Below are positions 37,701 through 45,463 of a DNA stretch of 64,000 bases, in pieces. The DNA comes from Escherichia coli. Its GTDB lineage: Bacteria > Pseudomonadota > Gammaproteobacteria > Enterobacterales > Enterobacteriaceae. The DNA is taken from NCBI RefSeq assembly GCF_013122565.1, contig NZ_CP053258.1, one strand, 5' to 3'. The position numbers are program-made. How positions within the stretch are numbered: position 1 is the stretch's first letter; the number at the start of each line of letters is the position of its first letter.

Positions 37701-40700
37701 TGAAAACGGCGCGTATTCTGACCGTCTGCGTGGCGGTAATGTTGCTGTTGAGCGCATGGGGATTGTTCGATTTCTGGAACTGGCTGCAAAACGGCGCGGG
37801 GCAGAAAACCGTAGATATCCTGATCCGTATCGCACTCATTCTTTTCTTCTCGGCGGTTGGCTGGACAGTGCTCGCCAGTTTGATCGAAAACCGGCTGGCT
37901 TCGGATATTCATGGCCGCCCGCTACCCAGCGCCCGTACGCGTACCCTGCTGACGCTGTTCCGTAACGCGCTGGCGGTGATTATCAGTACCATCACCATCA
38001 TGATTGTGTTGTCGGAAATCGGCGTCAATATCGCGCCATTGCTGGCAGGTGCCGGGGCATTAGGTCTGGCTATCTCGTTTGGTTCGCAAACGCTGGTGAA
38101 AGATATTATCACCGGGGTATTTATTCAGTTTGAAAACGGCATGAACACTGGAGATTTGGTGACTATCGGGCCGTTGACCGGCACTGTGGAACGGATGTCG
38201 ATTCGCTCCGTGGGCGTGCGCCAGGATACCGGGGCGTACCACATCATTCCGTGGTCTTCGATTACCACCTTTGCCAACTTTGTCCGCGGCATTGGTTCGG
38301 TAGTGGCAAACTACGATGTTGATCGCCATGAAGATGCTGATAAAGCCAATCAGGCACTGAAAGATGCGGTAGCGGAATTAATGGAAAACGAAGAAATTCG
38401 CGGGCTGGTTATTGGTGAACCGAACTTTGCCGGGATTGTCGGCTTAAGCAATACCGCGTTTACACTGCGTGTTTCGTTCACCACGCTGCCACTCAAACAG
38501 TGGACGGTCCGCTTTGCCCTCGACAGCCAGGTGAAAAAACATTTCGACCTGGCAGGTGTTCGCGCGCCAGTGCAGACTTATCAGGTGCTGCCTGCTCCGG
38601 GCGCGACCCCGGCTGAACCGTTACCGCCTGGGGAGCCAACGCTTTAACGCTGGCGATTGACAAAACGGCGGCGCTGCTCGTCGTTCATAAAGGTCCAGGC
38701 AATAAAGCGACTCTGCTTTTGCCCCTGGGCCATCTCTTTTTTAACCACCTTCACCGCGCCCACGTCCGTCAGGGCACGATACAACGGCGGTAAGTTTTCA
38801 CCACGAGATACCAGTGAAGTAAACCACATCACACGCTTCGCGAAGCCTTTGCTCTCTTCAATCATCTTTTTGATAAAGGTGACTTCACCGCCTTCACACC
38901 ACAACTCCTGTTGCTGGCCACCAAAGTTCAGTGCATCGTCTTTGTTCAGCCCCAGGTTACGGCGTTTACGCTCACTACCTGCCCGCGCCGCAGCGGCGGA
39001 ATTGTGGAATGGCGGGTTACACAAGGTCGCGTCGTATTGCTCGTTTTTATGGATGATGCCGTTAAAAATCGCCCCACTCTCTTTTTGCCGACGCAGACGA
39101 ATGGCGCGATTAAGCCCCGGATTAGCACTGATGATCGCCTGCGCACTGCTTAACGCCTGGCTGCTGGTTTCACTACCGGTAAAACGCCAGCCATATTCAT
39201 GTACGCCAATCAGCGGATAAATACAGTTCGCACCAACGCCGATATCAAGAATGCTGGCATTCGCTGGAATTGTTCCGCTTGCTTCTGCCAGTAAATCGGC
39301 AAGGTGATGAATATAATCCGCCCGGCCCGGTACTGGCGGACAGAGAAAACCGTCCGGGATATCCCAGTTCGCTACGGCGTAAAAATGGGCCAGCAACGCC
39401 TTATTGAGCGCCTTCACCGCCAGCGGATTGGCAAAGTCTACGCTTTGCTCCCCGGCGGGTGTAAGCGTGAGGAATTGCCTGAGTTCAGGATTGACCTGAC
39501 AAAGCGTGGCGAGATCGTAGCGGCTGTGATGACGGTTGCGCGGATGCAACCCCGGTTTCTGGGCGGACATAGCATTCTCCTTTAAGCAGCGGCGTAAGAT
39601 ACCCGCATAACGCGACAGGGTAAATATCTGGCTGCGTTTATCATTCCCCAAAACCTTAACATGGCTATGGTTTATGGCAATTCATCATAAAAATCAGCAT
39701 TATGCATGTCATTGATTTGTCTTATTTTGTAAAAATATATCGTTCAAAAAATAAGCATATCTCTGTCAATTTTTTGCGTCATTTTCATCGCCCAAGCGAC
39801 CTACACTTATCAGGCACTACCCGTTGTATTTATGAGGATGTCATTATGAAAAAGTGCCTCACACTACTGATTGCCACCGTCCTGAGCGGAATCTCTCTCA
39901 CGGCTTATGCCGCGCAACCGATGAGTAACCTGGACAGCGGTCAGCTACGGCCCGCCGGTACCGTTTCGGCAACTGGCGCATCAAACCTAAGCGATCTGGA
40001 GGATAAACTGGCAGAAAAAGCGCGCGAGCAAGGCGCGAAAGGTTATGTCATTAATTCCGCAGGCGGAAATGACCAGATGTTCGGTACTGCAACCATCTAC
40101 AAATAACCCCACCAACGTAACTGCATTCGCCTCTGGATGCAGTTTTCGTCTGTTTTGTAATCAAAAAACATCAAATATGAACGCAATGTAAATAAATGTA
40201 TTTCTTTTTCGCACAATGGGTGATAGAAAATCGCGCCAAGTGATAATGCTTATCAAAATTATTATCACTTGCACGAGTACTATCACGAGATTAACAGTGG
40301 CATCGCATCCGCAGAGAGGCTTTCTCGTGGCAGTGAAAATTTCAACATATAAGAAAAAGTCACCTGCAAAATGGAAAACAATCGCAATTTCCCTGCCAGA
40401 CAATTTCATTCGCTCACGTTCTTTGCCGGTCTTTGTATTGGCATCACGCCTGTGGCTCAGGCACTCGCCGCCGAAGGGCAAACTAACGCGGATGACACGC
40501 TGGTTGTCGAAGCATCAACGCCTTCGCTTTATGCGCCACAACAATCTGCAGATCCGAAATTCTCGCGTCCGGTAGCGGATACTACCCGCACGATGACGGT
40601 GATTTCTGAACAAGTGATTAAAGATCAGGGCGCAACCAACCTTACCGATGCGCTCAAAAACGTCCCCGGCGTGGGTGCGTTTTTTGCGGGTGAGAACGGT

Positions 40701-43700: not shown

Positions 43701-45463
43701 CAGTTACGTTAACTACAACTGACGGGCTGTGTAGCGAGTATAATTTGTATTTTGCGTGGCATTCCGTGCCTTTAACGCTGTCGTGACTGCCACGCTGCAT
43801 AAAACAAGTCCATAAGTACAACAAATAAATGGTTTATCAGTATGTTAGATATCAATCAATTTATTTGAACAAGGCGGTCAATTCTCTTCGATTTTATCTC
43901 TCGAAAAAAAACGTGATACTCATCACATCGACGAAACAACGTCACTTATACAAAAATCACCTGCGAGAGATTAATTATGAAAACTATCAATACTGTTGTT
44001 GCTGCTATGGCTCTTTCAACTCTGTCATTTGGCGTGTTTGCCGCGGAACCGGTAACGGCATCCCAGGCACAGAACATGAATAAAATCGGCGTGGTTTCTG
44101 CCGATGGCGCATCCACCCTCGATGCCCTGGAAGCGAAACTGGCTGAGAAAGCGGCGGCAGCCGGTGCCAGTGGATACAGCATCACTTCTGCCACCAACAA
44201 CAATAAATTAAGCGGTACTGCGGTAATTTATAAGTAATTCGTAGGACGGATAAGGCGTTTACGCCGCATCCGGCAACAGATGCCTGATGCGACGCTACCG
44301 CGTCTTATCAGACCTACAAAATCCGAACCGTTGGCTGAATCAGGCGTTTACGCTACGTCCAGCACAAGTATTTCCCTGTCTGTTTGCCGACAGACGCATA
44401 TGCTCTAACCCTCATTGATCCTATGTTACCCTTGTTTGCCCGTCCGCCACTGGACGGGCTTTTTTTTAGCTGGCTAACTGCTGACAGAAAGCCTGCAACG
44501 TCTCTTCCTGCATACCAATCTGCCGCGCCGCATCACAAATGGCCTGCCAGCTTCCCGCATCCAATGGAATCCCCTGCTCCTGCCGTTCGCGACGCGTGTT
44601 CACTTCCCACTCGCCCGGGAGCAAAATCGGCTTATCGTCATCATGCGGCGAGGCTTTCACCCACTCGGCAAAGGCTTCGGTCTGCGCGCTACAATCCGGC
44701 GCGCCGAACAGCTCCGGATTGATGATGATGGTGGTCATGCAGTTAAGAATGGCATCGGGACTGGTTTGTAACGTTTCCTGATGCGTCGTTTTACCGCCGG
44801 AAAGCGCCCCACCAAGAATTTCACACATCGCTGCAAGGGCGTAGCCTTTATGTTCGGCAAAGGTCAACAGCGAACCCAACGGCGACTCCTGCATTACCGC
44901 CGGATTGGTCGTCGGCACGCCGTTAACGTCAATCAGGCAACCTGGCGGCACGGGGACGCCTTTATGCCAGGCGACGCGGGTTTTGCCAAATGCAATGGCG
45001 CTGGTGGCGTAATCAAGCAACAGCGGGAAATTATCTTTACGAGGGAAAACCACACAGAAGGGATTGGTGCCAAAGCGGCTGTCGCGACCGTGGAACGGCG
45101 CGACCATTGGAATACCGACCACGCTAACAAAGTGGATAGAGACAAACCCCGCCGCTGCACACTGCTCCGCCCAGTAACCGATACGGCCGATATGATGCGA
45201 GTTATGTAGCGCCACGGCAGCAATACCGTGCTGATGCGCTTTCTCAATCCCCAGCGCCATCGCTTCGTGTGCCGCGACCTGACCAAATGCGCGATCGCCA
45301 TCGAGCGTGACCGCCGCCCCCGCCTCTTTAACGATTTTAGCATGATGATTAATTTGCAGATGCCCCTGACTCCAGGAACGCACATAGCTTGGGATCATGC
45401 CAATACCATGTGAATCATGCCCTGCCAGGTTTGCCGCGATTAAATGGTCGGCAACTAATTTCG

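Follow-up and report, generated by a model that had tools for sequence, protein, structure and literature searches.

The DUF1471 genes mcbA and ybiJ on either side of fiu-ybiX in Escherichia coli: an ordinary neighbourhood of old paralogues, probably regulated and inherited independently of the iron genes

Introduction

In a stretch of 64,000 nucleotides (nt) of Escherichia coli DNA (contig NZ_CP053258.1 of RefSeq assembly GCF_013122565.1; hereafter, the window), two genes for small secreted DUF1471 proteins, mcbA and ybiJ, bracket the catecholate receptor gene fiu, the hydroxylase gene ybiX and the zinc-finger gene ybiI. The initial annotation of this DNA took the arrangement for a local duplication around an iron-uptake module and was unsure what would link the DUF1471 proteins to iron. 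Does the bracket reflect a shared function, or do the genes merely lie side by side? All five share one strand, and rlmF and hcxB flank the block on either side:

39846-40106, plus strand: mcbA (ybiM), encoding an 86-amino-acid (aa) secreted DUF1471 protein (open reading frame (ORF) and translation; RefSeq 'DUF1471 family periplasmic protein McbA')
40371-42653, plus strand: fiu, encoding a TonB-dependent catecholate siderophore receptor (Pfam Plug and TonB_dep_Rec barrel; RefSeq)
42695-43372, plus strand: ybiX, encoding a PKHD-type Fe(II)/2-oxoglutarate (2OG) hydroxylase, a PiuC homologue (Pfam 2OG-FeII_Oxy_3 and PKHD_C)
43446-43712, plus strand: ybiI, encoding a DksA/TraR-type C4 zinc-finger protein (zf-dskA_traR, PF01258; expectation value (E) 2.6e-12)
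43977-44237, plus strand: ybiJ, encoding an 86-aa secreted DUF1471 protein (ORF; RefSeq; PF07338, E 7e-18)

We concluded, with a probability of roughly 0.82, that this is an ordinary annotated neighbourhood in which McbA and YbiJ are old paralogues that are regulated and inherited independently of fiu-ybiX. Gene content, domains, signals, presence or absence of genes and deletion junctions were observed in this study, and the acting regulators were taken from the literature; the history of duplication and the read-through into ybiI are our inferences.

Results

Gene content and conservation of the block in E. coli

The gene identities given in the initial annotation were all borne out by Pfam domains and RefSeq records, and the RefSeq names in E. 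coli are identical for all five genes (mcbA, fiu, ybiX, ybiI and ybiJ). Its remark that the arrangement was probably known was also right: RefSeq already carries the gene names, PMC12282094 calls YbiJ a paralogue of McbA, and the family is described in PMC4092069. The genes, the paralogy, the Fur control of fiu-ybiX and the small RNA (sRNA) ZbiJ discussed below are all annotated or published, and nothing at the locus is new.

The 5.1-kb block was compared by megablast with 5426 complete E. coli genomes, and presence was called at a coverage of at least 80%. It was found in 5416 of them, with a DNA identity of up to 98.9%. In K-12 MG1655 (b0802-b0806), the same genes occur in the same order, relative orientation and spacing, the block being inverted relative to the window. 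McbA, YbiJ, YbiI, YbiX and the ZbiJ sRNA are 100% identical to their K-12 counterparts and Fiu is 99% identical; there is no difference of substance, and the window represents another E. coli-type strain.

McbA and YbiJ are old paralogues within the DUF1471 family

Both proteins were recognized by the PF07338 profile (YdgH_BhsA-like/DUF1471; Pfam gathering score of 27 bits), McbA with 69.8 bits (E 2e-19) and YbiJ with 64.8 bits (E 7e-18), and in both of them profile positions 1-55 were covered at residues 34-86. The hydrophobic N-terminus, as read from the sequence, ends in AYA/A in McbA and in VFA/A in YbiJ, and a Sec signal has been reported for YbiJ (PMC12282094). The solved DUF1471 members 2noc (E 2.8e-5) and 2ma4 (E 3e-4) were matched at the sequence level only. 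In line with the DUF1471/YhcN/BhsA-McbA family as described (PF07338; PMC4092069), both are proteins of about 86 aa in which a putative signal peptide precedes one C-terminal domain of 55 residues with GTA.IYK at its end. About ten paralogues of this family, frequently in local clusters, are encoded in E. coli, and the family is tied to stress, biofilm and the envelope; a link to iron is neither known at the family level nor was found here.

Aligned end to end, McbA and YbiJ are identical at 40 of 86 positions (47%) with zero gaps (E 7e-16), which upholds their paralogy. For comparison with the remaining paralogues, the other K-12 DUF1471 genes were taken from the annotated genome. The closest E. 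coli paralogue of McbA is YbiJ (47%), followed by BhsA (41%). YbiJ itself is nearly equidistant from McbA (47%), BhsA (46%) and YhcN (45%), and the genes of the last two are unlinked to the locus. The two C-terminal tails, described earlier as near-identical, are indeed shared, but the degree of identity was overstated, as only 14 of the last 24 residues agree between McbA and YbiJ. Since BhsA matches YbiJ at 13 of these 24 positions, the GA..I.S...GTA.IYK tail is a family signature and no speciality of the McbA-YbiJ pair.

We then built a neighbor-joining (NJ) tree of labelled sequences comprising orthologues from ten genera over 86 columns. The McbA and YbiJ ortholog clades were each monophyletic with 88-96% bootstrap, and a sister grouping of the two reached only 25-43%. 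With a sister grouping this weak, a direct local duplication giving rise to mcbA and ybiJ is not demonstrated. A wider group of McbA, YbiJ and BhsA-like proteins obtained about 50-57%, and groupings of McbA with BhsA obtained 4-7%. For the same genera, the mean distance within the McbA clade was 0.42 and that within the YbiJ clade 0.21, indicating that McbA evolves about twice as fast. A broad NJ tree of 104 sequences including 50%-identity cluster representatives was rejected; it gave a star-like YbiJ/BhsA-like continuum, and about every second replicate failed the outgroup criterion.

At the DNA level, the similarity between mcbA and ybiJ consists of patches within the coding sequence (60 nt at 72%), and a comparison of the flanks of the two genes for duplicated DNA found no similarity. 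The paralogy is therefore old, and the unrelated flanks and the patchy, coding-only similarity do not support a recent segmental or tandem duplication. The mcbA-fiu spacer (40107-40370) and the ybiI-ybiJ spacer (43713-43976) are both exactly 264 nt long, which is a coincidence because there is no sequence similarity between them.

The gene neighbourhood is also informative about the origin of the pair. By our own arithmetic, ten DUF1471 genes in 4.64 Mb would be expected to yield about 0.08 pairs within 4.1 kb, so that the proximity of mcbA and ybiJ is mildly non-random and fits the local clustering of the family, as in the adjacent yjfN and bsmA. In at least six genera, mcbA neighbours ybiJ; the two genes are directly adjacent in Pluralibacter, and only ybiI lies between them in Enterobacter, Lelliottia and E. 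albertii. The local duplication proposed in the initial annotation is thus plausible from the conserved neighbourhood but is not proven by the sequences, given the similar identities of 47, 46 and 45%, the weak bootstrap and the dissimilar flanks. We take McbA and YbiJ to be old members of the YbiJ/BhsA/YhcN branch of DUF1471, for which the most likely origin would be an ancient local duplication before Escherichia, Citrobacter, Enterobacter and Pluralibacter split.

Alternatively, the ancestor of mcbA might be a bhsA-like gene or some other gene of this branch, and the place of mcbA near ybiJ would then be a coincidence of insertion into a variable slot. The near-equal distances of YbiJ from McbA, BhsA and YhcN and the low McbA-YbiJ bootstrap are in favor of such an origin, as are the report that, among Salmonella proteins, YcfR/BhsA comes closest to McbA with 47% (Eletsky et al. 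2014, PMC4092069) and the gene gain and loss that can be demonstrated between rlmF and ybiI (see below). On the other hand, the best E. coli paralogue of McbA is YbiJ and not BhsA, the support for McbA with BhsA is below that for McbA with YbiJ, two of ten paralogues lie within 4 kb against a chance expectation of about 0.08, mcbA is found beside ybiJ across genera up to direct adjacency in Pluralibacter, and the family does expand locally, as yjfN-bsmA illustrates. We consider an unrelated insertion unlikely, though it deserves to be taken seriously.

The 114-aa E. coli DUF1471 protein P0001 had the top profile score of 156 bits yet only 33% identity to McbA, and may be a fused or rearranged variant.

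Genes come and go independently between rlmF and ybiI

We compared YbiJ-relative loci (numbered with the prefix L) from 30 representative genomes, together with Salmonella and Klebsiella contexts. The constant core of the locus is ybiI-ybiJ beside ybiB; among the genera sampled, only Pluralibacter was without ybiI. The other boundary is rlmF in most genera, the upstream context being different in Pseudocitrobacter and P. vulneris. Between these boundaries, mcbA and fiu-ybiX were found in all four combinations of presence and absence. Both are present in E. coli and four Citrobacter (L012-L015). E. albertii, Enterobacter, Lelliottia, C. werkmanii, C. youngae ATCC and Pluralibacter have mcbA without fiu-ybiX, the Pluralibacter locus consisting of a flavin reductase gene and then mcbA directly beside ybiJ. 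The reverse, fiu-ybiX without mcbA, was found in K. michiganensis, where a flavin reductase gene takes the place of mcbA, and in Pseudocitrobacter. Neither is present in Salmonella and P. vulneris, where the slot is empty, or in Superficieibacter, where it holds a flavin reductase gene only. Throughout, fiu and ybiX were kept or lost jointly (33 of 33 loci examined), and ybiI belongs evolutionarily with ybiJ, not with fiu-ybiX.

Some of the absences are deletions. The last ~24 nt of ybiX, followed by the ybiI promoter, directly adjoin the mcbA terminator in C. werkmanii and C. youngae ATCC, and a ybiX 3' remnant also persists in E. albertii. The junctions thus show at least two clean losses of fiu-ybiX, one in E. 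albertii and one in the C. werkmanii lineage, with the mcbA terminator and the ybiI promoter left intact. When blasted against fiu-ybiX, the ~90 nt that fill the deletion scar of E. albertii gave no match. In Salmonella, the rlmF-ybiI spacer contains no more than an 11-nt resemblance to a ybiX remnant.

A duplication specifically around an iron-uptake module was therefore not borne out, since mcbA and fiu-ybiX come and go separately. The bracket would rather have arisen incidentally, as genes were gained and lost in the rlmF-ybiI slot, in which mcbA, fiu-ybiX and the flavin reductase gene appear to come and go independently of each other.

The flavin reductase gene (PF01613, ~204 aa) lies just downstream of rlmF in Klebsiella, Pluralibacter and Superficieibacter, and directly upstream of fiu in Klebsiella. 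Its copies, a third variable occupant of the slot, are as follows:

L039, 2457-3071: flavin reductase gene
L018, 5526-6140: flavin reductase gene
L032, 5522-6136: flavin reductase gene
L023, 5490-6110: flavin reductase gene

On the other side of the block, hcxB (ybiC; window 44466-45551) is a further variable gene of the locus and is not found between ybiJ and ybiB in Enterobacter, Lelliottia, Salmonella and Klebsiella (loci L010, L011, L026-L029, L038 and L039).

The Fur sites belong to fiu-ybiX

The signals of the iron genes in the window are as follows:

40220-40247, plus strand: promoter-like -35/-10 elements GTGATA-16-GATAAT upstream of fiu (9/12 in a consensus scan), overlapping the Fur array
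40236-40272, no strand assigned: Fur-box array of four overlapping 19-mers in 6-base-pair (bp) phase, inside the palindrome GTGATAAT...ATTATCAC
42661-42683, plus strand: GC-rich hairpin then U5, terminator-like or attenuator-like, in the 41-nt fiu-ybiX spacer (terminator scan)

The Fur box reported upstream of fiu in the initial annotation was confirmed as a phased array that is conserved in three other genera. A search with the 19-mer Fur consensus allowing up to three mismatches found no site; a match-count scan gave 13, 15, 14 and 13 of 19 matches for the sites at 40236, 40242, 40248 and 40254, respectively. A match of 15/19 is exceeded nowhere in the 64-kb window, and the promoter-like -10 element GATAAT of fiu is overlapped by the array. 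The only other 15/19 match in the window, at 10196-10214 (GATAATATTTATTATCATC), falls in the pdeI/gsiD region; it stands alone, without neighbours in phase, and is probably a chance match.

Citrobacter, Klebsiella (17/19) and Pseudocitrobacter have the array at the corresponding position before fiu. It occurs only with fiu, being seen in every genus that has fiu and missing from loci without it. In the window, no Fur site of 14/19 or better was found upstream of mcbA, ybiI or ybiJ. At a threshold of 13/19, none was found upstream of ybiI in Salmonella, Enterobacter, C. werkmanii, P. vulneris, Superficieibacter and Klebsiella, upstream of mcbA in E. albertii and E. cloacae, or upstream of ybiJ in Salmonella; the mcbA-ybiI spacer of E. 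albertii contains a single 13/19 match. In agreement with these patterns, fiu belongs to the core Fur (pan-)regulon and the Fur-1 iModulon includes fiu, ybiX and ybiI and leaves out mcbA and ybiJ (PMC10164565), a fiu promoter-lacZ fusion is Fur-repressed, and 'fiu-ybiX' is listed as a Fur-target operon (PMC4676285).

The two iron genes form a known pair. YbiX matched the solved homologues 3dkq and PiuC 9ghl with E of 1e-69 to 1e-76, and its HxD...H iron ligands are visible as GFHVDG and SSLHCV. Across Proteobacteria, fiu/piuA-type receptor genes typically adjoin a 2OG dioxygenase gene as a co-conserved two-gene unit (PMC12004947). The window matches this Fiu/PiuA and YbiX/PiuC (CciT-CciO) pair: the gene of a TonB-dependent catecholate receptor precedes that of a PKHD-type 2OG/Fe(II) hydroxylase, the pair is regulated by Fur, and the two genes are gained or lost together. 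The published pair differs in having no DUF1471 component, and Klebsiella has the flavin reductase gene upstream of fiu instead of mcbA. We regard fiu-ybiX as a probable ancient two-gene iron module, which Fur would repress through the phased array over the promoter.

The hairpin between fiu and ybiX folds at -19.3 kcal/mol (z -3.9). E. coli, Citrobacter and Klebsiella all retain its stem, Klebsiella with alterations on both sides, and the spacer is longer in Pseudocitrobacter. The hairpin may set the fiu:ybiX ratio, either as a partial terminator or by stabilising the mRNA.

mcbA, ybiI and ybiJ carry signals of their own

Outside fiu-ybiX, the following signals were found:

40120-40158, plus strand: intrinsic terminator of mcbA, a 10-bp hairpin then a U-rich tail (fold -15.9 kcal/mol, z -4.3)
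43376-43413, plus strand: promoter-like region of ybiI, TTGAAC-16-TATATT then a conserved TACACT (scan)
43856-43868, plus strand: box for the LysR-type regulator YhaJ, TCA-N7-TGA, in the ybiJ promoter, invariant in 11 genera or species
43912-43927, no strand assigned: CRP site CGTGATACTCATCACA upstream of ybiJ, nearly invariant across genera

The terminator hairpin of mcbA (AACTGCAT...ATGCAGTT) is kept after the gene in E. albertii, Citrobacter, Enterobacter and Lelliottia, and McbR/YncC is reported as the repressor of mcbA (PMC4092069, citing Zhang et al. 2008). The block just upstream of ybiI is retained without fiu-ybiX in E. albertii, C. werkmanii and Salmonella. At the ybiJ promoter, YhaJ binding was reported by gel shift and induction was lost on mutation (PMC5031710), and the mutated positions of that study, -120 and -112/-111, map onto the YhaJ box. 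The CRP site of the window is the reverse complement of the CRP site that Footprint-seq located at K-12 position 837977 with an in vitro dissociation constant of ~1.9 nM (PMC12871828), and ybiI and ybiJ are both listed as CRP targets by systematic evolution of ligands by exponential enrichment (PMC3105977). Furthermore, ybiJ is strongly acid-induced (PMC10746267), and the 130 nt upstream of it are unusually conserved across genera.

A single operon from mcbA to ybiJ is at odds with the strong mcbA terminator, the separate promoter-like or regulator sites before fiu, ybiI and ybiJ, and the distinct published regulators. We propose instead an ordinary neighbourhood of probably four independent transcription units between rlmF and hcxB. 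The mcbA unit has its own terminator and is reported to be repressed by McbR/YncC; fiu-ybiX would form the second unit; ybiI would be transcribed from its own conserved promoter, its co-variation with Fur targets probably arising by read-through from fiu-ybiX; and the ybiJ unit would combine the YhaJ box, the high-affinity CRP site and acid induction with ZbiJ in its 3' untranslated region (3'UTR).

With distinct regulators and signals, the reading of the five genes as a functional module fails. Independent regulation, which the initial annotation had named beforehand as counting against its proposal, is what both the literature and the sequence indicate: McbR for mcbA, Fur for fiu-ybiX, and YhaJ and CRP for ybiJ. 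The suspected functional link between DUF1471 proteins and iron uptake is accordingly left without support, as all four combinations of mcbA and fiu-ybiX occur, the Fur box is found only with fiu and the regulators differ.

Within the ybiI-ybiJ spacer, the segments 43756-43770 and 43820-43930 are unusually conserved from Escherichia to Pluralibacter and comprise, in addition to the YhaJ and CRP sites, an invariant GT.GCA.....GTGCC motif (43756-43770) and an AT-rich block. The spacing of the motif did not fit that of a sigma-54 promoter.

The ybiJ 3'UTR and possible read-through from the iron genes

Downstream of ybiJ, the following features were found:

44244-44314, no strand assigned: repetitive extragenic palindromic (REP)/bacterial interspersed mosaic element repeat in the ybiJ 3'UTR (Rfam naRNA4, REP-derived; 72.7 bits vs gathering score 59.5)
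44371-44467, plus strand: ZbiJ (asYbiE), an Hfq-associated sRNA from the ybiJ 3'UTR, ending at the ybiJ terminator
44340-44399, minus strand: ybiE, a 19-codon small ORF antisense to the 5' part of ZbiJ (RefSeq; translation MRLSANRQGNTCAGRSVNA, then stop)

ZbiJ is identical to K-12 b4814 at 97 of 97 nt and is predicted to fold into two hairpins plus a terminator and U8 (z -5.25). It has been verified by northern blot (PMC8175672), and rpoS is reported to be repressed by it (PMC8545128). The arrangement resembles that at the K-12 bhsA locus, where a DUF1471 mRNA likewise has an annotated 3'UTR-derived sRNA, BhsB (L003, 9304-9403). Unlike ybiJ-ZbiJ and bhsA-BhsB, mcbA has a short terminator only and no annotated sRNA. 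A second, degenerate REP copy lies at ~44329-44364, and the REP element is the probable reason why the 5.1-kb query matched each E. coli genome at a median of 11 places.

ZbiJ is also the sole thread from the DUF1471 genes to iron. Several points weigh against the independence that we propose: the regulatory claims rest on published statements; the sister grouping of McbA and YbiJ is weak, as described above; ybiI co-varies with the Fur regulon in E. coli (PMC10164565); the ybiI-ybiJ interval contains no convincing terminator (fold z -0.4); and RNA interaction by ligation and sequencing recovered chimeras of fepA mRNA with ybiJ-ybiC intergenic RNA, mostly in iron starvation (PMC11979758). As there is no convincing terminator between ybiI and ybiJ, some iron-regulated read-through into ybiJ and ZbiJ is conceivable. 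One could therefore imagine a purely regulatory link, in which transcription from the Fur-derepressed fiu promoter runs via ybiX and ybiI into ybiJ and raises ZbiJ, which acts on fepA and/or rpoS mRNA in iron starvation. The last three points and the standing of ZbiJ as a verified Hfq-associated repressor of rpoS would fit such a link. However, ybiJ is absent from the Fur-1 iModulon gene list, and fepA mRNA is most abundant in iron starvation, which could alone explain the chimeras, as their authors note (PMC11979758). Duplexes predicted between ZbiJ and the fepA 5' and 3' regions were no better than those of shuffled sRNAs (18/100 and 67/100 shuffles, respectively, equalled them), and ZbiJ and ybiJ persist in genomes without fiu-ybiX. 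Taken together, such read-through control appears improbable.

Discussion

The observations at this locus favor an ordinary neighbourhood in which old DUF1471 paralogues and an iron module happen to be neighbours. That all five genes form one iron-uptake module, with periplasmic McbA and YbiJ assisting catecholate-iron import by Fiu and YbiX and duplicated around them for that reason, would agree with a bracket fixed in E. coli (5416/5426 genomes), with the common strand, with ybiI sitting between both sets and following Fur, and with the induction of ybiJ at pH 4.4 together with fhuF and nrdI of the Fur regulon (PMC10746267), but it is very improbable and largely refuted, because mcbA and fiu-ybiX occur in all four presence/absence combinations, fiu-ybiX was lost at least two times with mcbA and ybiJ kept, neither mcbA nor ybiJ is preceded by a Fur box in any genus scanned, both genes are missing from the Fur-1 iModulon table, the published regulators differ (McbR, YhaJ and CRP) and the reported phenotypes are biofilm, colanic acid and envelope stress, not iron (PMC4092069 and PMC12282094). 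Given independent inheritance and regulation, the bracketing of fiu-ybiX by DUF1471 genes is not to be taken as a functional association.

The useful outcome is in this sense negative: two DUF1471 genes around a Fur-regulated cassette carry no functional implication. If the read-through were true, the E. coli-specific juxtaposition of fiu-ybiX and ybiI-ybiJ would wire an envelope-stress gene and an sRNA into the iron response, tuning the translation of fepA and rpoS. The fiu-ybiX pair, an entry route for catecholate antibiotics such as cefiderocol, has disappeared from several Enterobacteriaceae lineages cleanly and with both genes at once. The rlmF-ybiI slot may be a deletion-prone site from which this cefiderocol/catecholate receptor cassette has been precisely lost several times.

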